Virus record (IMG/VR): IMGVR_UViG_3300009510_000002
Reading direction: 5' to 3' (one strand)
Length of the DNA stretch: 64,000 nucleotides
Origin: a virus
Position 1 is the stretch's first letter. Each line of letters begins with the position of its first letter. Made by a program: the position numbers and the translations under genes. Under the pieces are notes generated by a model. That model was given only the letters and a program-made list of their open reading frames with translations, made no database searches and was not told the DNA's origin. Positions 13,332-54,137 of the stretch are shown in pieces.

Positions 13332-15743
13332 GTGAAATCAGTTGATCGCTTAGTAATGGACAGGGCTAGAAAAGCACTCCCATTATTAAATAAAGTTAAA
13401 AGTATTAACAAGAATTCACCCCAAATAGGAAAAGCGATTAAATCTTTCGCCGACAAGCTATGGAAACCACAAGCAGGACCGCAGACTCAGGCATTTAACC
13501 ATCAGGCAGATGAACTGTTATTTGGGGGAGCAGCAGGAGGCGGGAAAGCTCAACCATGCTACTCCATAGAGTGGGCGTTTGAGAATCTTAAATCATTTAC
13601 GGTGGATCAATATAGTAGTGTACTGTCTCAAATACCACAAGAGATTAGAAACAAAGACAGCAAAATACTAATGGGTGATGGACGCTGGAAATCGCTCGCT
13701 GAGATTGTAGTTGGCGATCGCATCATGAATCCCAGTGGTAGAACTCAAGAAGTATTACAGGTACATGAGAGAGGAATACTACACCTTTACCGGATTACCT
13801 TTGCAGATAAGACCACAGTGGAGTGCAGTGGTGATCATCTGTGGGGTTTTTGGAACATCAGGCCTCCTACTGTAAAAACTATTGACTGGGGTGTTAGCTA
13901 CATTTATAACACAAGAGTTAAAAATACGGAGTGGTTGTTTGAACAGTTTAACCAGTGGGGGAAATTTGCTATTCCCATCAATGATGCACTTAATTATACT
14001 GATAAATCCTTAAATAGTAGATGGGAAATCGCACGAAGATTGTTTGATGCTCATGGGGAAATCACTCAAGACAATGTTTTTATTGGGACTTTTGGTGACG
14101 ATTGTGACTTTGTGACTGACTTAGTGCGATCGCTGGGTTACATGGTTAGACACGAAGAAATCGACAGCGATCGCACTAAGCTTGTTGTCGAAGGTAATGA
14201 TAAATGGAAGTTATTTAGCCTTCCCTGTAAAGTAGAAGCAGCGAAAGAACATGAGCCAAATATCTGGGTGGGTAAAAGAATTGAGAATATCGAGGAAATT
14301 GGCTCAACCTACTGTAGATGCATAACAGTTTCTAACCCAAATGGTCTGTACATAACCGACGGATACAACGTCACCCACAATTCAGCCCTGCTACTGATAC
14401 TCGCTGGTCTATCCCATACTCAGTCAATCATTTTCCGCCGTGAATACTCTCGCCTAAAAGATATCATCGAGAAAAGCCGTAGGATGTTTGGCGAATTAGG
14501 GAAAAGCGCCAGGTATAACAGTACTGATAAGATTTGGCGCTTACCCAGTGGAAAGACAATTGAATTTGGAGCGATTCAGTACGACCAAGATATGGAGAAC
14601 TATCGCGGTCGTGAGCATGACTTAAAGGGATGGGACGAATTAACCGAGTTTACCCAAGAAATATACGAATTCGTCAATACTTGGAACCGATCGCCCAACC
14701 AAGTCCAACGCTGTAGAATCGTCGCTACTTGTAATCCACCATCCACAGAAGAGGGGCAGTGGATTATTGATTACTGGGGACCTTGGTTAAAGGAAGATTA
14801 CGAAGGTGTACCAGCACTACCTGGGGAAATTAGATGGTTTGCCCGTATTGGTGACAAAGACGTAGAACTGGAGTCAGGCGATCGCTTTTCCCACACCGAT
14901 GAAGATGGCAGAACCGAGCAAATTATTCCTCGTTCCCGCTCATTTATCCCAGCTAGGCTAGAAGATAATGCCTACCTGATGAACACCAACTACCGGGGGG
15001 CATTGCAACGATTACCTGAGCCACTGCGATCGCAGCTACTCTATGGTAGTTTCAAGAAAATAAAGACCAAAGACCATCCGTGGCAGGTTATTCCCTCGGA
15101 ATGGTACGATCAAGCGGTAGCCAGATGGACTGAAAACCCACCCGCACCACAATCGCATTTAGGTGTAGACGTAGCCAGAGGTGGTGAATGTAATTCAGTT
15201 ATTGCTAGCAGATACTACAACTGGTTAGCCCCACTAATTGTCATTCCAGGGACGGAAACCCCAGATGGTGACACACTGGCGATGGAAATATTAAAACATC
15301 GCCGCCATAATAAGGTAGAAATCAGGATTGACGTACTTGGTGTAGGTTATTCTCCCTATGATTCACTCAATCGCTTGAGAGTAAAAGAAGTAGTAGCGAT
15401 CAATGGTAATGCGAGCACAGGGGAGAAAAAAGATAAATCAGGAGTACTAGAATTCTTCAACCTGCGATCGTTTATGTATTGGCATTTTAGGGAAGCACTA
15501 GACCCTAAAAACCATTACGACATCATGTTACCGAATGATCCTCGACTGCGAAGGGAGATATTAGCTCCGCGATGGGAGTGCACAAAAGGTAGAAGTGATT
15601 TTGGGATTATTCGGGTTGAGAGTAAAGAAGATATAATTAAGCGTATTGGTGGTGGGAGTCCTGATAGAGCAGACGCTACGGTATATGCGTTCGCTGATTT
15701 AGAACTTGATGTTACTGATAATTATGATTGGTTGAGGGGATGA
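13332..15743 (+). CDS. terL: terminase large subunit, interrupted by an intein
   Basis: P-loop GGAAGGGK (aa 65-72), Walker B KGWDELTEF, ATCNPP, nuclease motifs GVDVARGG and SPDRADATVYAF. 803 aa with the Hint insertion, about 525 aa without it. Confidence 0.85.
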   Translation: MKSVDRLVMDRARKALPLLNKVKSINKNSPQIGKAIKSFADKLWKPQAGPQTQAFNHQADELLFGGAAGGGKAQPCYSIEWAFENLKSFTVDQYSSVLSQIPQEIRNKDSKILMGDGRWKSLAEIVVGDRIMNPSGRTQEVLQVHERGILHLYRITFADKTTVECSGDHLWGFWNIRPPTVKTIDWGVSYIYNTRVKNTEWLFEQFNQWGKFAIPINDALNYTDKSLNSRWEIARRLFDAHGEITQDNVFIGTFGDDCDFVTDLVRSLGYMVRHEEIDSDRTKLVVEGNDKWKLFSLPCKVEAAKEHEPNIWVGKRIENIEEIGSTYCRCITVSNPNGLYITDGYNVTHNSALLLILAGLSHTQSIIFRREYSRLKDIIEKSRRMFGELGKSARYNSTDKIWRLPSGKTIEFGAIQYDQDMENYRGREHDLKGWDELTEFTQEIYEFVNTWNRSPNQVQRCRIVATCNPPSTEEGQWIIDYWGPWLKEDYEGVPALPGEIRWFARIGDKDVELESGDRFSHTDEDGRTEQIIPRSRSFIPARLEDNAYLMNTNYRGALQRLPEPLRSQLLYGSFKKIKTKDHPWQVIPSEWYDQAVARWTENPPAPQSHLGVDVARGGECNSVIASRYYNWLAPLIVIPGTETPDGDTLAMEILKHRRHNKVEIRIDVLGVGYSPYDSLNRLRVKEVVAINGNASTGEKKDKSGVLEFFNLRSFMYWHFREALDPKNHYDIMLPNDPRLRREILAPRWECTKGRSDFGIIRVESKEDIIKRIGGGSPDRADATVYAFADLELDVTDNYDWLRG
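13548..14381 (+). mobile_element. Intein (Hint domain) inside the terL P-loop, probable class 3
   Basis: Block A-like DSKILMGDGRWKSLAEIVVGD, block B SGDHLW, block F YCRCITV, block G NVTHN followed by Ser. The C-terminal junction HN|S at 14381/14382 is clear. The N-terminal junction is ambiguous, at 13548 or about 13644. Confidence 0.7.
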
Positions 15744-39409: not shown

Positions 39410-39916
39410 TTGTACTACGACAGACACGTCATCCTCGACATGGACAAAAAACAAGCTGCTGAATTTTTAGGTGTTAGTCAGCGCATGATTGAACGCTATA
39501 CTCAGTCTGGCGAGATTGGGTGTACATATATTAAGCAAGGACGGGTAAATAAGGCTATATATGACGAAGAGGAATTAAGGAGATTTAAAGAACGGCGAGA
39601 AAAACCAATTCGTCCATCCATTACCACTGATACACCACGACAATCTCCGACATCCCACGACATTATACCGTACCCTGACACCTCCGACAGTATTGAAGAT
39701 ATCGTTGAAATAACCAGGATTTTCACCATAGGATTACAGCAAATTAGAACCAGTGAAAAGCTGGTATTAACACTGAAAGAATGTCAGTTACTAACTGGGC
39801 TTTCTCGTAAATATTTGTTGGATGCGATCGCGTCTAAGAAGCTAAAAGCCAAGTATATTGGCAGGGGGTGGAAAATTACCAGAATAGATTTAAAGGCTTT
39901 TACTAGATCCTTTTAG
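39410..39916 (+). CDS. DNA-binding protein with two excisionase/MerR-type HTH segments
   Basis: KQAAEFLGVSQRMIERYTQSGEI and LTLKECQLLTGLSRKYLLDAIASKKLKAKYIGRGWKITRIDLKAF. Confidence 0.55.
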   Translation: MYYDRHVILDMDKKQAAEFLGVSQRMIERYTQSGEIGCTYIKQGRVNKAIYDEEELRRFKERREKPIRPSITTDTPRQSPTSHDIIPYPDTSDSIEDIVEITRIFTIGLQQIRTSEKLVLTLKECQLLTGLSRKYLLDAIASKKLKAKYIGRGWKITRIDLKAFTRSF

Positions 39917-40045
39917 ATCCGTCTTCTAAGAATAGGGGGTCAAACCCCCTATCTATTTTTCTTCCTGCTAAAGATAGATTTTAAGAAACAAGGCTATAAT
40001 TTTTTTTAATTATTGTATTTTGCAAGCAATTTATTTGGTTTAAAA

Positions 40046-40531
40046 ATGTTAACAATTCAGTTAAGTACAGGAAGCCTACGTACATCGCTAAGTAGGTTTT
40101 TGGATACACCCATATTGGTCGAAAAAGTTGGCGACAAATACCAAGGGCTTGTTTTTTTAGATGGGGAGAATTTATTTAAAACCCCACTTTACAATTCCCC
40201 CAAATATACTTTACAAAAACTTCAAAGGAAAGCAGTTGAAAATTATTGCTACTCATCAAGATACCCTACCGTTATGATGAGTATTCGTGGCCAAAAGCAA
40301 AAAGTGGTTGCATTGAACGAATTGGCAGAGAATTTTTTAGGGGACAAATTAAATGGGGAACCTTCGATTTTTAGTAAATGGGGACGGGAATATATGCGGA
40401 AACACTTACTTTCTTTAAAAATTGCAGACATTGATCATTTAAATACAAAAAATGCCTTGATAGAAATTAAAAGGGTATCAAAGGCACTTTTTGTTTATTC
40501 ATTTGTAAATTGGGAGGATTCTATTTACTAA
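40046..40531 (+). CDS. hypothetical protein
   Basis: First ATG in the ORF-track frame. The track start at 40013 is TTG. Confidence 0.45.
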   Translation: MLTIQLSTGSLRTSLSRFLDTPILVEKVGDKYQGLVFLDGENLFKTPLYNSPKYTLQKLQRKAVENYCYSSRYPTVMMSIRGQKQKVVALNELAENFLGDKLNGEPSIFSKWGREYMRKHLLSLKIADIDHLNTKNALIEIKRVSKALFVYSFVNWEDSIY

Positions 40532-41327
40532 TCTCTTCATACTCTAATATCAAGTCTTCAATTAACTTAATAATTTGTTCGTAGCAATTACCTAATTTAG
40601 CGTCCCAAGTACTTTGCAGGGTGGTTAACTTTCTTCTATCCAAATATTCTACCATGAACCAAGCTATGGTATAGAGTGTATTCTCTGATATCTCTATACC
40701 ATCTACATTATTTCTAATATGGTGCAAAGTCTCAAGCGGGATATTGGTCATTCCCGCGCAATCAACCAAAGAAAAATTTCTCTTGGTCAGTACGTATATA
40801 AAAGCTTTTTGTAAGCGATTTAAAAGATCTCCGGAAATTGTACTCTGTCTTTTGTCAGATTGCCCTTTTAATCTTTCGGCTAATAATTGGCTTGATATTG
40901 CGACAATGTTAGCCAGTTCAGCCGTAGAGGCATTCTGAAGCCGAGACTCTAGGTCTTCAGCCTCAGAGACAGTACAGTTTAGTTTGTTTATCAAAAAGCT
41001 GGCCAGTGACATCCCGTAAAATTTAGCCAGCATTGCCAAGTCTGTGACTTTTGGCACATCAGTTTGAGCCGGGTCAGACCAACGCCGGATTTTGTTTCTT
41101 CCTATTTCCGGAATTTTACTTTCTATTTCTGCGGACAACTTATAGGGTGTTAGATCTTTTTCTCTGGCTTCCTGCCTGAAAAAGGTTACGAGCTTGGCTT
41201 TAATATCTTCCTCGGGTGGAAAGTAATTCGCCGATTTTACGTTTCCACTTACATCACGATCATCACGATAATTATTATCTTCCTTACCATTCACTGAAGT
41301 CTCACCGCTTAGTAACACCATAACCAC
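40521..41327 (-). CDS. double XRE-type HTH regulator encoded directly downstream of the Cas12-like gene
   Basis: KIRRWSDPAQTDVPKVTDLAMLAKFYGMSLASFL and SLVDCAGMTNIPLETLHHIRNN resemble two XRE HTH units. Confidence 0.55.
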   Translation of the reverse strand: MVMVLLSGETSVNGKEDNNYRDDRDVSGNVKSANYFPPEEDIKAKLVTFFRQEAREKDLTPYKLSAEIESKIPEIGRNKIRRWSDPAQTDVPKVTDLAMLAKFYGMSLASFLINKLNCTVSEAEDLESRLQNASTAELANIVAISSQLLAERLKGQSDKRQSTISGDLLNRLQKAFIYVLTKRNFSLVDCAGMTNIPLETLHHIRNNVDGIEISENTLYTIAWFMVEYLDRRKLTTLQSTWDAKLGNCYEQIIKLIEDLILEYEEISK

Positions 41328-41455
41328 ATACTACCGCTTTGCAACTACACATATCTTATAATATTATCAAATAAATATTTTTGCAAAACAAGTATATTTT
41401 TGCAAATCGCATGAAATACTTGTGGTGGCAGTATTTCAGCGATTTCGTTTTTAGC

Positions 41456-43336
41456 TTAAGTTTTCACCACTATTGGTTTTATTCTCTTTGTTTTAGCCGT
41501 TTTTGGTTTAACAGCCTTTCTGGTTTTTTTGATAGTGCGTTTTTTGCTGTCTACACCCTCTAGCGATTCAGGTGGCACAGGCTTGTCAGTGCGGGTAATA
41601 TGAGAAAACCATTCATAGTGCTTAATATCTTTTTCATCACAAAAAGCACCGTAATAATCATTTTGTGCAGCATTTGTATCAGCGTTTTGTTGAATTTGAT
41701 AAAGCTTACAACGTTCGTTTAAGCAGTAAAACTCAAGAGCTTTTGGGTGTCTACCTAGTTCCCCACAACAGTGACATATCTGGCTGGAATAAGGAGATGG
41801 GGACAAAGTGAAGCTATCTGGTCCCCTAAATCGCCGACATTTCTCCTCCACCAGCGATCGGTATCGTCCCCATCTAGCATCTAAAATTTCGCGATTTAAA
41901 TCAGATTGGTGTTCCGCACCATTTGGTTCATATCCTTTACCATCTGCACTTGGTATCGGATCCGGACGCTTCACCATCTCGTCTGTCGGCATTTCCTCAA
42001 TAGTTATTTTCCCAAAGCGGCGTACCAGAATAGTTGAGGATTTATGCAAAAATGCATTGGCGGGTCGCCGGATCTTGGTTTCATTGATTTTACCTTTTCG
42101 GTGGAGCGTTTTTTTGTAATTATTACTATCTCCCCGCAAATGATCCACGGACAACCCTTGCTCTTGGCGCTCCTTGATTAATTTTTTCCTATCGCTGCGT
42201 TGTCTGGCTAGTTTACGCTCGATTCTTGCTAATTTTCGAGCTTGTTTGGCAGCAAACCGAGGATTTTTGACATGGCTACCAGGTTCGTCACTGGACATGA
42301 GGTTGATTAGCCCCGTATGGACAGCTATTCCCCGCTTCCGAGGTTTAATTTTGGCTTTTTTACGTACCTGTATTGATAATTCTGCCTTTAAATCACTGAT
42401 TTGCTGCTTAAGCAACTCTTTTTCCACAAACTCCGGAGTCTTTTTCAACTGAGCTTCCAGTTTACGAATTTTAACTTCCAAAGGATGGGCACTGACAATA
42501 CACACATACCACCCGGTGGGTTCTTCCTTAATAGTTACCGCCCTAATGGCTCCGGGGGTAGATCGCACCTCTTCGGGAATTCGCTCATGATTCTTATTTA
42601 CAAATCTTAGTGATAAAGGATGCTGCTTACCTTCACCATCTACCCATTTACCAGGGAGCCTAAGTCTATCGCCATCAAACCAGATCTGCTCTGGACTAAT
42701 GCAATGGAATGATGGCAACATCTCATTCTTTTTAAAATTAGGCATACAAGCTTTTTCTATCTTGGGGTTCAAATAAGCTTCCCAAGCAGCAACTAAGCGA
42801 TTAAACACAGTCCCCTTCATCCAAGACGACGGTACAGTGAGTTCCCCCAGTAGTTTTAGTTTCGGCTGACCCTTTTCTACACGATCCTTATTTATTAGCC
42901 GCCGGCGGGAGTCTTCTTCTTCACGCATCAAATCACATCTTGTCTTAGTCAGGTACCCTGTAAGGGTCATAAAAAGGTCTGGATTTTTGGGTCTAGCCTT
43001 ATTTTCAGGGTAATGGGACAACAGAGTTGGTTCCTCTGGTAGCATTTTTGGGGGTATGGGGGTGTAGACTCCATTTTTAATAATTGCAATTTCACAAGTT
43101 GGCGATGCCCATGCCCTCTTTTTATTTAAGCGGAGCCTACAGCGGAGAATCCCGTTCATGTTGATTTTTTCTTTTGCTGCGTTTTTTAACATGAACTCGT
43201 AATACCTAAACTGCTGATACTCAATCAGCAACTCTAGCGCCTTGTTCCAAATCCACCTTAAATTAGCTGCATTTCTGCCAGTAAAGAAATTTTTCTCCCA
43301 ATCATTCATGTAGATTTTGCACTCAGTCGTTATCAT
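41456..43336 (-). CDS. TnpB/Cas12-like RNA-guided effector candidate (type V-like), RuvC-I Asp replaced by His
   Basis: TnpB-like WED/REC strings. RuvC-I position reads RGIAVHTGL (H340), RuvC-II ITIEEM (E447). Zn ribbon C521xxC524...C538x4C543. RuvC-III NADTNAAQN (D553). Adjacent CRISPR array. Confidence 0.8.
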   Translation of the reverse strand: MITTECKIYMNDWEKNFFTGRNAANLRWIWNKALELLIEYQQFRYYEFMLKNAAKEKINMNGILRCRLRLNKKRAWASPTCEIAIIKNGVYTPIPPKMLPEEPTLLSHYPENKARPKNPDLFMTLTGYLTKTRCDLMREEEDSRRRLINKDRVEKGQPKLKLLGELTVPSSWMKGTVFNRLVAAWEAYLNPKIEKACMPNFKKNEMLPSFHCISPEQIWFDGDRLRLPGKWVDGEGKQHPLSLRFVNKNHERIPEEVRSTPGAIRAVTIKEEPTGWYVCIVSAHPLEVKIRKLEAQLKKTPEFVEKELLKQQISDLKAELSIQVRKKAKIKPRKRGIAVHTGLINLMSSDEPGSHVKNPRFAAKQARKLARIERKLARQRSDRKKLIKERQEQGLSVDHLRGDSNNYKKTLHRKGKINETKIRRPANAFLHKSSTILVRRFGKITIEEMPTDEMVKRPDPIPSADGKGYEPNGAEHQSDLNREILDARWGRYRSLVEEKCRRFRGPDSFTLSPSPYSSQICHCCGELGRHPKALEFYCLNERCKLYQIQQNADTNAAQNDYYGAFCDEKDIKHYEWFSHITRTDKPVPPESLEGVDSKKRTIKKTRKAVKPKTAKTKRIKPIVVKT

Positions 43337-43489
43337 CCCCGTTACCCCTAAACCGTGACATGAACTAATTTAATCCAAAAAAGAACATCTTGCCTTTTTT
43401 GAAATTATGGATCATAATGTGTTTACTTTGAATTTTTCAAAGTCTACGCGGCTTGGTCTGCGGAAGTTAAAGCTTGTTCTGAACTTAAG

Positions 43490-43804
43490 TTCAGTATTTG
43501 GGGGACAAAATACCAGTGGGAGTACCCCCAAGCGACCAGTAGGTGAAAGCCCTGGATTGAGACAAGTCCCTCAATGAGCGGGCCGGAATCCTGCTCCGAT
43601 CCCGGGCAACCGGAATACCTACACTCTTAGAGCGATCTGCTACCTGAACCTTGACAATTGCGCGCGTGCCACCCTTGCGATCTTTGCTCTGCAACGATTT
43701 TGGGTATCTGCTGTATCTCACGCGGGAATAAACACAGCTTGTTTACCTGAACTTCGGAAACCCTTTCTGGAATTCTTTCTACGACTGGGTTCTGGAGGGG
43801 AGGG
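43490..43804. ncRNA. ORF-free GC-rich structured region between effector gene and array: tracrRNA/leader candidate
   Basis: Stems such as GGGGG(43500-04)/CCCCC(43525-29). Anti-repeat CTTGCGATCT at 43674-43683 is complementary to the repeat 3' end. The ORFs predicted here look spurious. Confidence 0.5.
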
Positions 43805-44654
43805 GTGGCGATAGGCTTTAGATGTCTGGGTAGTCGCAAGCTTGTAATGCCCAAACTTTTTGGTGTGCATCCCTAGCGGTGGCGATAGGCTTTAGATGTC
43901 TGGGTAGTCGCAAGTTTACAATAGGCAGATTCTTGATCAGCTAACGCTTAACGTGGCGATAGGCTTTAGATGTCTGGGTAGTCGCAAGCTCAACCAGCTA
44001 ATTCCTAGCTATACTGGACAATCAGTGGCGATAGAACTTAGATGTCTGGGTAGTCGCAAGTGCCTATGATCCTCTGTTCCTTAGAGTGTTGGTGTGCTCT
44101 GTGGCGATAAGCCCTAGATATCTGGGTAGTTGCAAGAATACGAGTTATTGCCGCATCTTTATCTAGGTCAACTGTAGCGATAGGCTCTAGATGTCTGGGT
44201 AGTCGCAAGAATCACGGTTGGCACGAGAGCGTTTTTCGCTCAATTTCGTGGCGATAGGCCCTAGATGTCTGGGTAGTCGCAAGCTGATCCATTCTTTCGT
44301 CACTTTCCACCCCCAATCCAGGTGGCGATAGGCCCTAGATGTCTGGGTAGTCGCAAGGTTGACATAAGTTACTGAATTTAAGTCTCGATTTAATTAGTGG
44401 CGATAGGCTCTAGATGTCTGGATAGTCGCAAGTGGAGTTATTGGATTTGGATAAACACCACGAAAAAGTGGTGATAGGCTTTAGATGTCTGGGTAGTCGC
44501 AAGTAAAATTTGAGTGTTTACTTAAATCAGGGGGTTAAAAGTGGCGATCGCACCTAGTAGATGTTAGACAGTCGCAAGACACAGAATACAGGTTTAAACT
44601 TGTTAATGACAGCATTAAAGTCGCGATCGCACTTAAATATTTAGGCAGTTGCAA
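43805..44654 (+). CRISPR. CRISPR array: 10 conserved plus 2 degenerate 36-nt repeats, 35-41 nt spacers
   Basis: Consensus GTGGCGATAGGCTTTAGATGTCTGGGTAGTCGCAAG. Repeat starts at 43805, 43879, 43953, 44025, 44101, 44174, 44248, 44322, 44397, 44468, with degenerate copies at 44541 and 44620. Strand is inferred from the degeneration gradient. Confidence 0.9.
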
Positions 44655-44690
44655 TTCTGACTAATTATTAAAAAAGGTTAAGATCCGGGA

Positions 44691-45331
44691 GTGGCGATCG
44701 CAAGTGATAGTTCTGAATGATCGCAAGTTATCTTCCTGGTTGCCACAATTTTGGGGATGCCTGGCGAAAATCGCAAGTATCCAGGTCAGGACAAGACAGG
44801 GAATAGGGATTGCAAGGGTAAGGAATTTTAGGTCTGAGCGATCGCAGGTCCGAGTATGTCGCAAGTTGAATCGTGAGCCATCGACTGTTAAAGGTCTAGC
44901 GCAGGTTTAGACAATTCCCCAAAAAGTTGTTTTCTCCTGAAAACCTTACCCCACAAAGGTTTTGGTTGCACAAGTATTTGTACTTTGATTACGAAACACA
45001 TAAATTGGGCGTAGGTCGCAAGTCAGCAGGAATTTTATCACTTAGGTTCTCACAGGCAGTTTTAGGATTGGTGGCGATCGCTAAGTATTACAGTTTTCTA
45101 GTCAAGTAGGAAAGAAAGATCGCAAGCTGTGAACAATTACTTTAAATAGGTTTAGATCGCCAAGGATGAATAAAAAGATGAGATCGCAAGTCATGGGATT
45201 GGCAAGTCGCAAGACAAATTTCTCTCCCTATTCAGATCGCAAGCTGATCCAAAATGTCAGATAGACTATTTGCTTAATGTAGTGCGATCGCAAGAACGAA
45301 GGGAACATTCCGAGTTTTGATAGATCGCAAG
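44691..45331 (+). repeat. trail of 11 exact (plus ~7 near) copies of TCGCAAG, the 3' end of the CRISPR repeat, at irregular 17-69 nt spacing
   Basis: Exact copies end at 44704, 44727, 44777, 44865, 45022, 45126, 45190, 45213, 45243, 45294, 45331, all on the + strand. 44691-44704 GTGGCGATCGCAAG is a collapsed repeat. Confidence 0.8.
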
Positions 45332-48183: not shown

Positions 48184-50118
48184 CTAAGCTGTTTCTTGCA
48201 TTAAGTGGCCATATCGTTGGAAAACTTTTGGCGATCGCGACATTTTTACTCTGAAAAGACGACCGAATCCAGACTTACAAATATGCTCACCCCAGCGATC
48301 GACCTGAGCCTGATCACGGAAGAGTCGCCCAATATTAGACTGGGTAAGAAATTCTTCAAACCCGTGGATTTCAATTTGGTCCATCACATTTTCATGATGA
48401 ATTGAATCAAATTCCACAAAAAAGTCTACTTCGGGTTCCGCTTCTTTTTGGCGGAGTTTGCGAAGATAAGCTAAGTAGTCCTTGTAATATTCTTTCGCCC
48501 TGACGTAATTGCCGGAAATCTCACTCATGCAATTAACGCGCGTCGGTTGGTAATTGCTCTTACCGTTGATATTCGTGAGTTTACATTCCTCCTCACGTAC
48601 CTTAATATACCATCCGAGAAAATTCCTGTCAACATTATCACCATTCATCCACGGGTCAGCGGACGAACTGCGATGAACACCCTTGATCGGGTTAAGGTGG
48701 CGTTTCAAAAGTGAACCGCAGTATTCGTCTAGCTCATCATCGGTTTTGTTAATCCATTCATCCGTATGATCAGCAACATTTGGTCTATGTAATATTGGCT
48801 TGGGGATATTAGTTCGATTGTTCGGCTTTGTCGAACGAGGCGCGGAACCTTCTTTTTTAAATCCGTTGGGAAATGAGTGATCTGTGTGCTGCTTAATTTC
48901 TTCACATGGCGAAGATGTTGTTTCTGGTTCTTCTTCAGTTGTGCTGCTAACGGTAGGTTCTTCTGAAATTAACGTCAGGTTAATAGCTGGTAGATCTTGG
49001 ATTACCTCAAATCCAGGGATAAGGGGTAAATCTGGAAATTCCTCTTTGGCCATTTCTTCTTTCTCCTCCGATTTTGGAACAAAATCCTCCTCACTTGTCT
49101 TTGGGTGGGGGGTGGGATTTGTATTTGTAGTAGTTAATGAAGTAATAATTGAATTCCTTATATATAGGGTGTCTTCACTTCCTTCATTCACTTGGGGTGA
49201 ACAGTCTTGGCTACATACGTCTGTAGATGGGCCCAAAAAAACAGCCCCTGAATCCTGTAAACTAAGATCCTTTATCTCTGTCTTGTCAGGTACGAGAGAT
49301 AAGTGAGCTTTATCGGATCTAGAAAGCCCTCTCGATTTTTTTGATGATTGTTTGGATTTAAACTTCCCAGTAAGTATTGCAATTTTGCTGTGGTTCCTAA
49401 AATACCACGTCGTTCCCTCTAAGTGGTCGTGATAGCTGCAAAAGTATTTTTCTTCGCCATCCTCACTTAAAAATGGGTTTGGTGATGCAATAAACTGGGT
49501 GTAAGATTTATGCTTAACACCAATTTTGTCAAAAGCTGTTCTGAACTGAAATTCGCTAAAACCTAGTTCCTCGGTCCAACTGTCACCTAACCTGTAATGT
49601 CGGTTGTCGTTGGGGGATAAAAATTTGTAGAAACCTTCGCCTTTGGTTATGTCAAACCAGTATTCCAATCTGGTAAAGACAATAGCGGCGTTAATATCTT
49701 TTACAAGGTCAAGAATTGGGCGACTGTAGCCAATAAAGTCCATACGTTTTATACTGAGAAAGTTAGAAAAATTAGAAGAGTGCGATCTATCTAGATGTGT
49801 TTGGTGTGAACTTGAGTTTATATGCGACTGTTCACACGATTGGGCATCTATTTTTGTTGTTGGTGTATTTATGGTGGGCGACGAAAACATACTATCCCTG
49901 TCTCCGCCCCCATTCTTTTTTGCACCTCTGGGGCTAATACCTTTTTCCCTTACGGTAAGGAGATCTTGAGGCTTGTAATTTATAAAAATCTCAGAATTCT
50001 TGTTGACAGTATCGCTAGAAAATGATATATTCAGCATTGATTCTTTGTTTAACATTTCTTGCTCCTTCTTCTGCTGAGTTAGAGGTGTTGTAGATAAAGA
50101 TCCTTCTTTAGCTAGCAT
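48184..50118 (-). CDS. hypothetical protein, candidate replication initiator/organizer by position
   Basis: 644-aa ORF directly upstream of dnaB with a repeat-bearing AT-rich region upstream. Possible winged-helix segment (INAAIVFTRLEYWF...ELGFSEFQFRTAFDKIG). Confidence 0.55.
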   Translation of the reverse strand: MLAKEGSLSTTPLTQQKKEQEMLNKESMLNISFSSDTVNKNSEIFINYKPQDLLTVREKGISPRGAKKNGGGDRDSMFSSPTINTPTTKIDAQSCEQSHINSSSHQTHLDRSHSSNFSNFLSIKRMDFIGYSRPILDLVKDINAAIVFTRLEYWFDITKGEGFYKFLSPNDNRHYRLGDSWTEELGFSEFQFRTAFDKIGVKHKSYTQFIASPNPFLSEDGEEKYFCSYHDHLEGTTWYFRNHSKIAILTGKFKSKQSSKKSRGLSRSDKAHLSLVPDKTEIKDLSLQDSGAVFLGPSTDVCSQDCSPQVNEGSEDTLYIRNSIITSLTTTNTNPTPHPKTSEEDFVPKSEEKEEMAKEEFPDLPLIPGFEVIQDLPAINLTLISEEPTVSSTTEEEPETTSSPCEEIKQHTDHSFPNGFKKEGSAPRSTKPNNRTNIPKPILHRPNVADHTDEWINKTDDELDEYCGSLLKRHLNPIKGVHRSSSADPWMNGDNVDRNFLGWYIKVREEECKLTNINGKSNYQPTRVNCMSEISGNYVRAKEYYKDYLAYLRKLRQKEAEPEVDFFVEFDSIHHENVMDQIEIHGFEEFLTQSNIGRLFRDQAQVDRWGEHICKSGFGRLFRVKMSRSPKVFQRYGHLMQETA

Positions 50119-50154
50119 TTCTTGCTCCTTCTTCTGCTGAGTTAGAGGTGTTGT
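50053..50154 (-). repeat. tandem duplication (two perfect 39-nt copies, 63-nt period) duplicating the RBS and ATG of gene 48184..50118
   Basis: Copies at 50053-50091 and 50116-50154. The minus strand reads ACAACACCTCTAACTCAGCAGAAGAAGGAGCAAGAAATG. Confidence 0.85.
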
Positions 50155-50185
50155 GCTTAAATTGGTGAATTGATTTCAAAAAACA

Positions 50186-50236
50186 GTTCATCGTTTTACC
50201 TCACTTGACCGACTGTTACTTGACCGTTCATCGTTT
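50186..50236. promoter_or_regulatory. nested direct repeats GTTCATCGTTTT (x2) and ACTTGACCG (x2), iteron/operator-like
   Basis: Repeats at 50186-97 and 50225-36, and at 50203-11 and 50217-25. Lies in the divergent intergenic region next to the replication module. Confidence 0.4.
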
Positions 50237-50502
50237 TTCTTTGTTAATTGCCCTCTCCCCCGGTATCCCATACGCTCCCCGTGCCAATGAGGTAGTATGT
50301 GTGGTACATTAAGAGGAATTAAAACACCGATAAAATTTGAGTAAAATATTTTGCTTCTTGTCTCCTTCCCCCCCTGGGTAGGGGATATTTTTTTTGTTCC
50401 TTAGAGAACATACCATTTTACACTCCGTTTGACAATAAAATAAAAAAATCACAATTTTCAAAAAAGAACGAACAAATATGATATAAAAAATCTTATCAGA
50501 GT

Positions 50503-51372
50503 TTGGTCAAAAAAGTGCTGGCCGATAAAATTTCCACACAACCGACATCAGTTTCAAAAACGTCACCCGTAGACTGCTTTGTGGCAACCGTGCCTGAGCC
50601 AAAGTCTAAACTGCCATACGCCTCACAGATCGAGGCGTTCAGAAATGATATTCGAGTTCTATCCGATTCCCTTTCCCCCAATGGGGTAGCTTGGCTTTGG
50701 TGCAAGGATTTTATATGGAAGCCCATACCTAACTGGGATCTACCAGGTATAGGAGTTTCCTATCGAGATATAGCAAAAGATTACGTAGCTCGCCTATTGG
50801 GGGCAGAACCCCCTACTAATCCGCAGGATGAACCAAATAGGGAAGATTTTTGGTTTAAAGATGCAAGTCAAGGTAAATATATCTCTGTCCATGTAAAGTG
50901 GGTTCCCAATGGGAAAGATGCTTGCTTAGAAGTTGATTTAGGGAAGCTAGCCTCTGATGTTTATGTGCTTGTTCAAGGTGAAGAGATGAACATCTTAGGG
51001 TGGGCTGGTATCAATTATCTAAAATGTGTTGGCCCTACAAATCGTGGGGATGGATCTGGTGCTAAATATTATTTGCATCACACACGGCTTTTACCCTTTG
51101 ATGCTATAGAAGCACATTCACAATATCTTCGTTGGGGAGAATGGGCCCATTTCCCATCCCGGATAGTTAACCTGCTGCGGTGTGCTGGTTTTTTTATCCA
51201 AGAATTTAGGAAGGAAGATGATCGCCACATCCTGCTCGCCTCAAAAAGCAGAAGGACGACACCCGATCGCACTCCCCGGACATATCAAGACTGCATCGAA
51301 TTGGTCTGCGATCCATTTGACTCCCCAGTGGTTAGAACCCACTGGGGATTTTTGCGGGAAAAACGGAACTAA
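50503..51372 (+). CDS. hypothetical protein
   Basis: 289-aa ORF with TTG start in the track. True start uncertain. Confidence 0.55.
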   Translation: MVKKVLADKISTQPTSVSKTSPVDCFVATVPEPKSKLPYASQIEAFRNDIRVLSDSLSPNGVAWLWCKDFIWKPIPNWDLPGIGVSYRDIAKDYVARLLGAEPPTNPQDEPNREDFWFKDASQGKYISVHVKWVPNGKDACLEVDLGKLASDVYVLVQGEEMNILGWAGINYLKCVGPTNRGDGSGAKYYLHHTRLLPFDAIEAHSQYLRWGEWAHFPSRIVNLLRCAGFFIQEFRKEDDRHILLASKSRRTTPDRTPRTYQDCIELVCDPFDSPVVRTHWGFLREKRN

Positions 51373-51392
51373 CACAATTTAAAGGAAGCAAA

Positions 51393-51683
51393 ATGGTACG
51401 TATCTTTAGAAACATCCTTGCTGTCAGCTATTTCCTCGATAGAGGAACAATAATCAGAAATGTAAAGTGTCAGGGTAATGTCCTAACTGGACAGTTCTGG
51501 GATAAAGATAACCCCGACCAGGTTTCTAGTGTGGAAATCGTTCTAGATATCCCCAACCTTAAATACTCCCTATTCGTATCCAACCCATCTGGGGCTGGTT
51601 CTGCCTCTAGAGGTATGAACCTAGCCTACGCCAAAGGGTGGGAATCTCTGCTGTCAACTGCAAAATTACCTATAGCCGCTTAA
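51393..51683 (+). CDS. hypothetical protein
   Basis: 96-aa ORF with SD AAAGGAAG upstream. Confidence 0.5.
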   Translation: MVRIFRNILAVSYFLDRGTIIRNVKCQGNVLTGQFWDKDNPDQVSSVEIVLDIPNLKYSLFVSNPSGAGSASRGMNLAYAKGWESLLSTAKLPIAA

Positions 51684-51686
51684 CTT

Positions 51687-54137
51687 ATGTTCCCCCAATC
51701 AGCAACTTGTGCGTTCCCCGTGTTTTATAAATCTTACTCTCGCTATATCAAAGGAGCTAGAGAAAGTTGGAAGATGACGTGCGATCGCACTACACAAGCT
51801 TTGTTTGAATTGGGGGATTTTGCGGACTGGGAGCGACAGCTAGTCCGAGAGAGCCTAGATAAATTACACGTTATTCCCTCCGGCCGCTGGTTATGGGTGG
51901 GGGGAACAGAATGGTTAAACAAACCAGAGAACTACTCTGGAGCCTTTAATTGTACTGGTACAGATATTATTGATTGGCATAGCTTTGGCTTGCTAATGGG
52001 GTTAGCTATGCAAGGCAGTGGTACTGGTGCTGTCTTAGAGCCTCGCTGTATTAATAATCTGCCCATGATTCGCGTTCACATTGATGTGGAAGTTGCAGAT
52101 AACTTAGGGCAGAATTACCCCTATCCAGAGGGTGTAGGAGACACAACTGAAGTCCACCTAATTAAACCTGGCTTTTATAGCATGTCCGTGGGGGACTCCC
52201 GACAAGGGTGGGTAGATGCATATCAGTGGTTCTTGGAAAAGTCCAGCGATCCTGATGAGTTACCCAGTATTAAAGTCATCGTTGATCTATCCTTTGTTCG
52301 CCAATCAGGTTCTCCACTAAAAGGGTTTGGTGGAACTGCTAATCCAGTAAAGTTGCCGAACCTATTTAAAAAAATCACTAAAATTACCAACGCAGCTGTA
52401 GGCAGATATCTCACCTCACTTGAATGTTGCCTATTAATAGATGAAGCTGCTTTGTGTGTTGTAGCTGGAAATATCCGCCGTAGTGCCGGAATCCGCCAAT
52501 TTTGTGCCGATGACCTGATCGCAGAAAACGCTAAAACTAGCCTTTGGCAGCAAGATAGTTTAGGTAATTGGAAGATTGACCCAGACCGTGATGCCCTGCG
52601 GATGGCAAACCATACCCGTGTCTTCCACCGTAAACCTACCCTTGATGAATGTATTGGCTCGGTTCGGAAGCAGTACTATAGCGGTGAAGGTGCAATTCAA
52701 TGGGCTGGAGAGGCGATCGCCCGTGCCAACGCGGATATTCTTAACACCTCAGAATTAAAGCAGCAGTTTTTAGATAGCTACGAGGGAAATAGATTTTATG
52801 CCGCAAGCACTCTGAGGGCGATCAGTTATCGGGCGGGTGTTGAAATGGATGAGGATGAGCTAGATCATCGGATGTCTAGGTATTCTCTTAACCCATGTGG
52901 AGAAATTTGTGGTAAAGATTTTCACTGTAACCTCTCTGAGGTGCATTTATCACAAATTAACCCATTAGACTTTGAATCCCAACGTAAAGCTTTTAGGGCA
53001 GGAGCTTTAATCGTCTGTGCATTACTTAAGCGTGGATTCACCGAAGAACGGTACCAGCGATCGCGCGATTTAGATCCGATTGTGGCAGTGTCGTTTACGG
53101 GATGGTTTGACTTCTGCGTGAATCTGTTTGGTGTGAAGTATTTAGAATGGTATGCAGCGGGTCGGGGTTTAGATTGGGGGCAATACCCGGATGAGAAGTT
53201 TATCATCCTTAAACCCAACGCCACTTTTGATAAGTATCAATCTGTTCTGTATAAAGATCACCTGAAAATCTTTCTACCACCTGAGATTTATCGGATTTGT
53301 AGCGATCGCTTTTTAAGGCTTGGGGATGAGTTCCGGCAAACACTAGGTCAGGTATTCCAAATAATTGAGGAAATATATCTTTCGCAATGGAAAGGTATAG
53401 TTGCCCAGATGGTTGAGAGTTACTGTGACTACCATTTACTCAAACAACCAAACCGATTTACCACTGTTCAGCCCGCTGGCACCAAAAGTCTCCTAACTGG
53501 CTCAAGTCCAGGGTGGCATCCTCCCAAGGATACCTACTACCTTCGCCGGATTACGATGCCCAAAAATGATCCGGTGGCTCTAGCATGCATTGACTACGGT
53601 TACAGTGTGGTTCCCTCTCAGCTAGATAAGGATAAGCATGGTGTTCTGCTAGATGACCCCTTTGACCCCCGCTGTACTGAATGGTTAGTTGAAATTCCTA
53701 CTTGCACTAATTGGGCACATCTGCCGGGTGTTGATCAAGTTGATATTTCCCAACTCCCATTTATTGCCCAATGGCGAGCCTATATGACTGTCCAGCAGCA
53801 CTGGACAACCTTCAACACCAGCGCCACTTTGGAAATTACCGCAGATGAAATCGAGGAAGCTGGACGCTGTATCCACCAAGCCATTGAGCAGGACCAAGGA
53901 TATGTGTCTGCTGCAATCCTAGCTCGGTTCCATGATAAACAAACCTTTCCCCGCCTCCCATTTGAGCCAATTACTAAAGATCAGTACGAAGTGTTGATGG
54001 CGATCGCTCTAAGTAGGCGAAAAAATGATGATTTTGACTATTTAGTTAATTTACACACACCTACAGACTTTTCTCAATCTAAAGAAGCTGGTGATGGTGT
54101 GGTGGGATGTGATTCAGGAGCCTGTTTATTGCCATGA
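51687..54137 (+). CDS. nrdJ: ribonucleotide reductase, class II (B12-dependent)-like
   Basis: N-terminal PVFYKSYSRY...RESW, catalytic region SLNPCGEICGKDFHCNLSEV, C-terminal redox Cys pair CDSGAC. No nrdB seen nearby. Confidence 0.8.
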   Translation: MFPQSATCAFPVFYKSYSRYIKGARESWKMTCDRTTQALFELGDFADWERQLVRESLDKLHVIPSGRWLWVGGTEWLNKPENYSGAFNCTGTDIIDWHSFGLLMGLAMQGSGTGAVLEPRCINNLPMIRVHIDVEVADNLGQNYPYPEGVGDTTEVHLIKPGFYSMSVGDSRQGWVDAYQWFLEKSSDPDELPSIKVIVDLSFVRQSGSPLKGFGGTANPVKLPNLFKKITKITNAAVGRYLTSLECCLLIDEAALCVVAGNIRRSAGIRQFCADDLIAENAKTSLWQQDSLGNWKIDPDRDALRMANHTRVFHRKPTLDECIGSVRKQYYSGEGAIQWAGEAIARANADILNTSELKQQFLDSYEGNRFYAASTLRAISYRAGVEMDEDELDHRMSRYSLNPCGEICGKDFHCNLSEVHLSQINPLDFESQRKAFRAGALIVCALLKRGFTEERYQRSRDLDPIVAVSFTGWFDFCVNLFGVKYLEWYAAGRGLDWGQYPDEKFIILKPNATFDKYQSVLYKDHLKIFLPPEIYRICSDRFLRLGDEFRQTLGQVFQIIEEIYLSQWKGIVAQMVESYCDYHLLKQPNRFTTVQPAGTKSLLTGSSPGWHPPKDTYYLRRITMPKNDPVALACIDYGYSVVPSQLDKDKHGVLLDDPFDPRCTEWLVEIPTCTNWAHLPGVDQVDISQLPFIAQWRAYMTVQQHWTTFNTSATLEITADEIEEAGRCIHQAIEQDQGYVSAAILARFHDKQTFPRLPFEPITKDQYEVLMAIALSRRKNDDFDYLVNLHTPTDFSQSKEAGDGVVGCDSGACLLP

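Follow-up and report, generated by a model that had tools for sequence, protein, structure and literature searches.

The 64,000-nucleotide (nt) stretch of viral DNA analyzed here (IMG/VR record IMGVR_UViG_3300009510_000002; hereafter, the window) encodes a Cas12p-like, type V-U2-like effector of 626 amino acids (aa), whose gene occupies positions 41456 to 43336 on the minus strand and carries a histidine, H340, at the position of the first catalytic aspartate of the RuvC nuclease site, with the triad reading H-E-D. The gene was assigned from its open reading frame (ORF), phmmer, a family profile, Foldseek and NCBIfam, and it stands next to a ten-repeat CRISPR array. Residue, register, fold, family, phage context and array are all directly observed. 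What they suggest, with a probability that we put at roughly 60%, is an RNA-guided DNA binder whose cleavage activity has been lost or strongly reduced and which would act by occupancy.

On the plus strand, positions 42317 to 42319 read ATG, that is, codon 340 of the minus-strand gene is CAT (His); it lies in the local peptide R335-G-I-A-V-H-T-G-L-I-N-L, with KRGIAVHTGLINLMSSDEPG as the longer context, followed by the KLARIERKLARQR helix. A phmmer search against all PDB sequences returned one strong match, the Cas12p chain 9JFS_A (E 3e-32, residues 164-572), in which the segment GIAVHTGL pairs with SVGIDPGV and row counting puts H340 on chain residue D506. The catalytic center of this Cas12p, Cas12 hacker (entries 9JFS and 9JG3), is formed by D378, E478 and D582 (bioRxiv 10.1101/2025.01.20.633832). 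Since native E478 is chain residue E606, which aligns with E447 of the viral effector, the offset between chain and native numbering in 9JFS is 128; chain D506 is therefore native D378, and H340 falls on the RuvC-I catalytic position. The same register is seen in two multiple alignments: in a MAFFT alignment of the effector with its 25 best representatives (A1; 26 sequences), the column holds aspartate in 25/25 relatives, and in a larger one of 134 sequences (A2), in 128 of the 133 relatives. The two other catalytic residues are retained in columns that are invariant in A1, namely E447 of RuvC-II (GAG, 41996-41998, minus strand), aligned to E478 of Cas12p, and D553 of RuvC-III (GAT, 41678-41680, minus strand), aligned to its QADTNAA motif.

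An AlphaFold2 model built on A1 (mean pLDDT 86.6, pTM 0.76) showed the expected order of an RNase H fold, with a first strand at residues 335-340 (β1), strands at 345-349 and 355-357, a long helix, a further strand at 443-447 and a helix at 552-565. H340 ends β1, E447 ends the 443-447 strand and D553 starts the last helix. When the model was compared with the PDB by Foldseek, the top match was again Cas12p (9JFS; E 8e-25, TM 0.61/0.72, the higher value being that on the target), with TnpB and Cas12f next. The original prediction, made from the letters alone, had read codon 340 as CAT within the peptide starting at R335, noted that E447 and D553 are present, and proposed the RuvC-I register and the H-E-D triad as something that an alignment or a structure should confirm. 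Each of these points held up: no aspartate was found at the RuvC-I position, and H340 stood there in all four alignments, that is, phmmer to 9JFS, A1, A2 and the AlphaFold2 model.

Outside the changed codon, the protein has the appearance of an intact effector. Its 626-codon ORF contains neither a frameshift nor a stop, and we place its start at M1 because the N-terminus (MITTECKIYMND) aligns with the MKTLEFKL N-terminus of relatives; a gene caller preferred M10, giving 617 aa, and the exact 626-aa version is also on record. The effector keeps 49 of 70 family-conserved columns and, by alignment, the WED and REC motifs, the cysteine of the thioredoxin pocket and the zinc finger. Indeed, all four zinc-finger (TNB) cysteines, C521, C524, C538 and C543 (41708-41776, minus strand), are present, and Pfam recognizes a Cas12f1-like TNB domain, with OrfB_IS605 below cutoff. 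C81 (TGT, 43094-43096, minus strand), found through a conserved C-x-I-A motif, corresponds to C127, the thioredoxin-reactive cysteine of Cas12 hacker, and I83 to I129 (C255 and I257 in the chain); the hydrophobic TB.a positions are likewise conserved. The basic TB.b loop is absent from both the effector and its sister proteins. As a separate observation, a plus-strand stretch of 24 nt inside the coding sequence (42651-42674) is 75% complementary to positions 2-25 of the CRISPR repeat, the repeat-like sequence on the mRNA strand being TGGCGATAGACTTAGGCTCCCTGG; this is about chance level for 64 kb.

The best NCBIfam model was V_cas_c2c8 (type V-U2, NF038192), which the effector matched at 170.5 bits without reaching the cutoff of 350, followed by guided_TnpB at 79.8 bits (cutoff 100). 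A profile of the effector and its 25 nearest representatives (A1) matched 9JFS over the full length (E 5.7e-185), and because of this match to Cas12p we classify the effector, on its sequence, as a divergent member of the wider Cas12p/type V-U2 family. Its nearest relative, found by exhaustive HMMER search of 1.84e9 representatives, comes from Anabaena sp. 90 and bears a TnpB family annotation (37-39% identity), and identity to hacker-like representatives is ∼23-24%. A word-indexed search for closer homologs in 5.8e9 protein clusters returned the effector itself alone, a search for related loci in IMG/VR and JGI metagenomes found none, and look-ups of contigs bearing the exact protein returned no record. 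By these searches, the effector is a singleton and an isolated lineage. The group nearest to it consists of P0002 to P0007 and gp061 of cyanophage CL131, the latter a published type V-U2 effector (PMC6293099). A side observation concerns the Kamptonema relative P0005 (L001, 7942-8050), whose mini-array consists of two repeats; the first of these is 37 nt long and shares 18 nt with the 3′ end of the effector ORF. The layout falls between that of a TnpB omega-RNA and that of a CRISPR array.

How unusual is the substitution? Among the relatives in A2, the effector is the sole H-E-D member and the sole protein with a lone RuvC-I change. Five of the 133 relatives lack the first aspartate, and these have also lost the glutamate in 5/5 cases and the last aspartate in 4/5. 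At RuvC-I, -II and -III, P0067 reads S, A and N; P0084, S, A and D; and P0091, S, Q and V; P0092 (K, K) and P0107 (K, N) have no RuvC-III residue, their C-termini being truncated. Four more relatives are changed at the glutamate or the last aspartate (P0130, P0144, P0141 with D553H, and P0090), and the dead relatives are dispersed among intact ones in the family. The loci that we fetched for three of them all show direct repeats ∼70 nt apart adjoining the dead effector gene: 11 repeats for P0084 (L012, 10001-12737), 3 short repeats of 21 nt for P0067 (L013, 5486-7355) and 7 for P0107 (L014, 1-2242), which compares with 10 in the window; P0107 is a clear Cas12p relative (E 6.6e-75). The three look like uncharacterized, array-linked, nuclease-dead Cas12p-family proteins of independent origins, and loss of RuvC with retention of the array recurs in the Cas12p/V-U2 family. 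Because such relatives arise repeatedly, a binding-only role is plausible for the effector studied here as well. Note that the L012, L013 and L014 contigs resemble mobile elements and that the RuvC sites of their effectors are fully degraded. A reading of L012 as a CRISPR-associated transposon (CAST) was rejected, its transposase pair being IS21-like, and the idea that L014 shares the divergent array layout of the window was withdrawn, the L014 repeat ending in AAAC on the gene strand.

The neighborhood of H340 has also diverged. The effector deviates at four of 19 near-invariant columns (G338A, D340H, Q373E and K477Q), all of them in RuvC, compared to zero to three deviations in intact full-length relatives, with the exception of P0081 (four), and 5 to 12 in clearly dead relatives. 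With 11 Cas12-hacker-like proteins as the outgroup, the effector is the most diverged of its subgroup (25.4% identity versus 28-33% for its sisters). The largest deficit falls on residues 331-400 (15% versus 20-38%), and residues 511-565 show none, their 43.7% being the subgroup maximum. These figures are alignment dependent and not conclusive, yet they suggest a change in constraint around RuvC-I that dates back some time, and the divergence of this neighborhood counts against a lone, very recent point change. We rejected as weak another sign of an old change, "four consecutive substitutions in GIDPG," since A338 and V339 are also seen in intact relatives and position 341 varies.

The array itself (43805-44503, plus strand) lies upstream of the effector gene and divergent from it, and comprises 10 repeats of 36 nt (GTGGCGATAGGCTTTAGATGTCTGGGTAGTCGCAAG) with 9 spacers of 35 to 40 nt. 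The three repeats nearest the leader are identical, and the 3′ 22 nt hardly vary among all 10. Several repeats carry 2 to 5 mismatches, and of the 17 mismatches among the ten repeats, 12 are at positions 10-14 (shared variants are not independent events in this count); this suggests continuing constraint on the repeat portion that a mature CRISPR RNA (crRNA) would retain. Four observations led us to place the array's reading direction on the plus strand, with each repeat (...GTCGCAAG) preceding its spacer. In relatives whose array follows the gene on the same strand, Kamptonema L001 and CL131, the repeats end in GCAAG; repeats are intact near 43805 and decayed toward the opposite end; region 43480-43840 shows folding bias on the plus strand (z = -2.55, 2/100 shuffles) versus the minus strand (z = -0.11); and the reverse complement of TCGCAAG occurs as a single copy in the 64-kb window, CTTGCGATC, within the leader.

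This leader (43337-43804, plus strand) is, judging from fold bias and promoter-like sites, a divergent promoter region with a candidate trans-activating CRISPR RNA (tracrRNA); the promoter-like sites, at 43390-43418 (plus) and 43440-43411 (minus), are not above chance in number. CTTGCGATC (43675-43683, plus strand) is a candidate anti-repeat to the repeat 3′ end, (G)UCGCAAG, and could be the partner for a short repeat:tracrRNA pseudoknot; in Cas12 hacker, such a pseudoknot is formed with the last bases of the repeat (bioRxiv 10.1101/2025.01.20.633832). It stays a candidate because a long anti-repeat is undetectable: a long-duplex tracrRNA was dropped when the duplex energy of repeat versus leader proved no better than that with shuffled repeats. 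BLAST of the leader against the flanks of relatives showed no similarity, and an Rfam scan of the leader matched no family. Matches of the repeat-end pattern to other arrays were discarded, three in Pseudomonas (GTDB genomes) as chance and one high-GC array in IMG/VR as unrelated.

Beyond the array follows a degenerate trailer (44504-45331, plus strand) of 2 to 3 decayed repeats and then ∼12 orphan repeat 3′ ends, mostly GATCGCAAG, at irregular spacing. Counted as TCGCAAG, these ∼12 extra copies are all on the plus strand and 23 to 157 nt apart, and 21 of the 23 plus-strand copies in the window fall within 43834-45325. Some trailer copies resemble collapsed repeats, GTGGCGATCGCAAG, made up of the first 8 nt and the last 6 nt of the repeat, thereby creating HIP1 sites. 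Two readings are possible for the region: a trailer in decay, or truncated repeat-guide units of the sort described for Cas12k.

In RNase H-fold nucleases, the first RuvC aspartate bridges both catalytic metals, and it is this metal-bridging residue that histidine would replace in an effector whose RNA-binding, DNA-recognition and zinc-finger parts appear intact. Since mutation of any residue of the DED triad abolishes cleavage by TnpB and Cas12 (bioRxiv 10.1101/2023.11.30.569447), loss or strong impairment of cleavage is a well-grounded expectation, even if histidine could in principle bind a metal. The protein would assemble with crRNAs of the adjacent array, probably together with a tracrRNA from the leader, and would retain R-loop formation on matching DNA while cutting very poorly or not at all. 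Such occupancy could then keep any DNA matched by the roughly ten spacers from being transcribed or replicated. The proposed mode is most like that of Cas12m or Cas12c, because guides would come from a multi-spacer array rather than one fixed guide and no transposon or sigma partner appears among the scanned ORFs.

Several points weigh against this picture. The finding rests on one residue in one metagenomic sequence, and a single catalytic residue is changed; a survey of TldR proteins left out single-residue cases owing to false positives (bioRxiv 10.1101/2023.11.30.569447). E447 and D553 are undrifted, whereas they have drifted in every clearly dead relative, which fits a recent event or a site that still works. 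G338A and I339V are within normal family variation in A2. The protein is a singleton whose nearest relative, at 37-39% identity, is too distant to show conservation of the histidine or to date the change. The array trailer is heavily decayed, no partner gene for the effector was found in the window, and the search for spacer targets came up empty both in the window and in public collections of phages, plasmids, viruses and metagenomes. Cleavage loss and guide-dependent binding, like any biological role, are predictions.

Regarding the spacers, none of the 11 spacers or 24 guide candidates gave in-window matches above chance, BLAST of the array against a phage collection gave no match, and exact 21- to 22-mers of six spacers had no match in IMG/VR or JGI metagenomes. 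A plasmid BLAST match in Picosynechococcus pAQ7 was dismissed as single, weak and outside the array.

The main rival is that D340H is a recent loss-of-function lesion, a neutral or slightly deleterious knockout in a decaying CRISPR-Cas12p module of this phage lineage that has taken on no new role, further damage to the protein having yet to build up. GAT to CAT is a single nucleotide change, and the histidine is common to no relative of what is, after all, a singleton; the intact E447 and D553, unlike in all clearly dead relatives, the strongly degenerate trailer, the repeats with 2 to 5 mismatches and the lack of spacer targets in the collections searched all fit such decay. Yet the 626-codon ORF without frameshift or stop, the preserved zinc finger, thioredoxin-pocket cysteine and WED/REC motifs, and the nearly invariant 3′ halves of the repeats are not what a decaying module would lead one to expect, and the whole RuvC-I region is unusually diverged, suggesting that time has elapsed since constraint changed. 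On balance, we regard a lesion as rather less than likely. The original prediction had allowed for a recent mutation or a sequence error; the former stands as a strong rival, and the latter has become less likely, given that JGI/IMG, Logan and GEM record an identical protein.

Improbable, in our estimation, is a nuclease that remains active with an unusual H-E-D center, in which either His340 binds a divalent metal such as Mn2+ or a different acidic residue steps in, with a possible shift in metal preference or rate. Histidine does serve as a metal ligand in some RNase H-fold nucleases, for example, in the DEDH tetrad of Argonaute; E447, D553 and the surrounding pocket are conserved here, with the segment of TNB and RuvC-III being the best conserved part of the protein, and Cas12 hacker works with Mg2+ or Mn2+. 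However, the first aspartate is the most conserved residue of the fold, kept in 128/133 relatives, we know of no catalytic-residue relocation that concerns RuvC-I, and the sole nearby acidic residue, D350, is a family-conserved hairpin residue and not new. Catalytic residues at alternate positions are known from TnpB and Fanzor (bioRxiv 10.1101/2023.11.30.569447), which counts for such an active center.

Very unlikely indeed is a sequencing or assembly error with GAT as the true codon: a single base would suffice in a metagenome-assembled contig, but JGI/IMG, Logan and GEM all list the exact 626-aa sequence (possibly from shared reads), with a 617-aa call under JGI, marginal coverage is unlikely for a 134-kb contig, and the neighboring unusual residues T341, Q373E and K477Q speak of genuine divergence.

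Returning to the RNA-guided binder, one may ask what it would be for. As a hypothesis, the cyanophage, whether lytic or temperate, would maintain a naturally nuclease-dead Cas12p-like effector as its own array-programmed CRISPR interference (CRISPRi), silencing but not cutting host genes or rival mobile elements, and the effector would represent an early H-E-D stage on the way to the full RuvC loss seen in P0107, P0092, P0084, P0067 and P0091. We put this forward tentatively, as a possibility short of even odds. The original prediction had already envisaged a nuclease-dead silencing effector; of this, the impairment is sound in light of the DED mutation literature, whereas the silencing is speculative, the searches having found no spacer target, no partner gene and no close homolog that would show the histidine to be maintained.

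With respect to the genomic context, the window carries genes for a large terminase, a head maturation protease, an endolysin, a DnaB helicase, a ribonucleotide reductase, a Dam-type methylase and a tail morphogenesis protein, and its source contig measures 134 kb. For the DnaB protein, the closest counterparts are in Planktothrix phage PaV-LD (42%) and Aphanizomenon phage CL131 (36%), and the cyanobacterial HIP1 octamer, GCGATCGC, occurs in 101 copies. We identify the virus as a cyanophage of filamentous cyanobacteria. The original prediction had called the effector phage-encoded and array-associated, in agreement with the terminase, head protease, endolysin, DnaB and ribonucleotide reductase genes on the one hand and with the 10-repeat array at 43805-44503 on the other. 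We scanned 66 ORFs (63 of the 76 in the window that reach 100 aa, and three shorter ones) and among these found no Tn7-like genes (rve, TnsC and TniQ families), no sigma-factor family and no adaptation genes; nor is an ORF for a thioredoxin-like CxxC protein encoded in the window.

Directly downstream of the effector gene lies an ORF of 268 aa (40521-41327, minus strand) with no Pfam match and a weak PHROG match to repressor/helix-turn-helix (HTH) proteins, and beyond it, a 168-aa protein with a double HTH_17/MerR-like domain (39410-39916, plus strand). In the relative P0003 (L004), an HTH_26 gene overlaps the effector start. A regulatory link of these neighboring HTH genes to the effector is possible. 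HIP1 sites, 101 in all and ∼630 bp apart on average, are missing from 4.7 kb at 39824-44544, the longest such gap in the window. Within it lie the cas12p-like gene with its leader, the intact array part and two unknown ORFs, and the gap may be the sign of a module acquired recently; another gap, at 48231-51781, measures 3.5 kb. Elsewhere in the window, Rfam detects a HEARO RNA (RF02033, IscB omega-RNA; 100.8 bits) at 1-160 on the plus strand, its 5′ end cut by the window edge, followed by ORFs 191-718 and 779-1399 with no Pfam or PHROG match and no evident IscB. Within the large terminase ORF (13332-15743, plus strand; 803 aa), residues 108-160 weakly match a Hint (intein) domain and the terminase matches are split, which suggests an intein or other insertion in its ATPase domain.

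Naturally RuvC-defective relatives of type V effectors and TnpB are well known, as illustrated by Cas12k, TldR and dCas12f-sigmaE. Our literature search found no description of a dead Cas12p/V-U2 effector, and to our knowledge, natural phage-carried CRISPRi has so far been seen only with fixed-guide TldRs. If the histidine state is functional, the effector would make up a type V system that a virus encodes, that draws on multiple spacers and that binds without cutting. The thioredoxin-assisted Cas12p family would then also have yielded a naturally dead Cas12 scaffold of compact size (626 aa), and the protein, with one catalytic residue of the three gone, would stand partway along the route by which TnpB/Cas12 nucleases have repeatedly become DNA binders. 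Should the change instead be a recent lesion, we would be looking merely at a broken phage CRISPR module.

For comparison, the original prediction had pointed to Cas12k and TldR; RuvC-defective relatives are indeed known, but the closest family is neither of these but Cas12p/V-U2. The best match in both sequence and fold is Cas12p/Cas12 hacker (type V-P; 9JFS and 9JG3), an active, thioredoxin-assisted nuclease family (bioRxiv 10.1101/2025.01.20.633832). Like the effector, it is a phage-borne, array-associated miniature Cas12 with the domain order WED, REC, PI helices, RuvC and zinc finger, and by alignment, the positions of its thioredoxin-reactive cysteine and hydrophobic TB.a residues are conserved in the effector (C127/I129, corresponding to C81/I83). 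In contrast, Cas12 hacker cuts double-stranded DNA with D378/E478/D582, where the effector has H340/E447/D553 and hence no intact triad; it also has the basic TB.b loop, missing from the effector, and its repeats end in AAAC instead of GCAAG.

Also among the closest systems are the type V-U2 (C2c8) systems of cyanobacteria and of cyanophage vB_AphaS-CL131 (PMC6293099), whose V_cas_c2c8 model is the best NCBIfam match of the effector, albeit below cutoff (170.5 versus 350 bits). CL131, too, is a cyanophage of filamentous hosts with an effector and an array but without adaptation genes; its 36-nt repeats end in GCAAG, and its gp061 belongs to the same subgroup. It differs in that gp061 keeps the aspartate and in that its array lies downstream on the gene's own strand, as opposed to upstream and divergent.

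Cas12k of type V-K CASTs resembles the effector in its cyanobacterial origin, naturally defective RuvC and similar repeat 3′ end, and it shares PI-domain and GTN-PAM (protospacer-adjacent motif) kinship with Cas12p (bioRxiv 10.1101/2025.01.20.633832). However, CASTs have Tn7-like tnsB, tnsC and tniQ genes beside the effector, which are missing among the 66 scanned window ORFs, and fold similarity is weak (8RDU, Foldseek E 6e-4). TldR proteins descend from TnpB, have an inactivated RuvC, are often carried by prophages and act as repressors through occupancy (bioRxiv 10.1101/2023.11.30.569447). They use one fixed guide beside the gene, have usually lost at least two catalytic residues or have a truncated C-terminus, and lack a CRISPR array; the effector, with its multi-spacer 10-repeat array, full C-terminus and single substitution, is therefore no TldR. 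dCas12f-sigmaE systems, in turn, have an adjacent gene for an extracytoplasmic function (ECF) sigma factor, a family not seen in the scanned window ORFs. Finally, Cas12m and Cas12c are distant kin (Foldseek E 1e-6 or weaker) that, unlike the effector, keep an intact RuvC triad, which they use for crRNA processing. It is nevertheless their mode that we propose for the effector: both are array-programmed type V effectors that protect by blocking, not cutting, DNA (PMC11013384).

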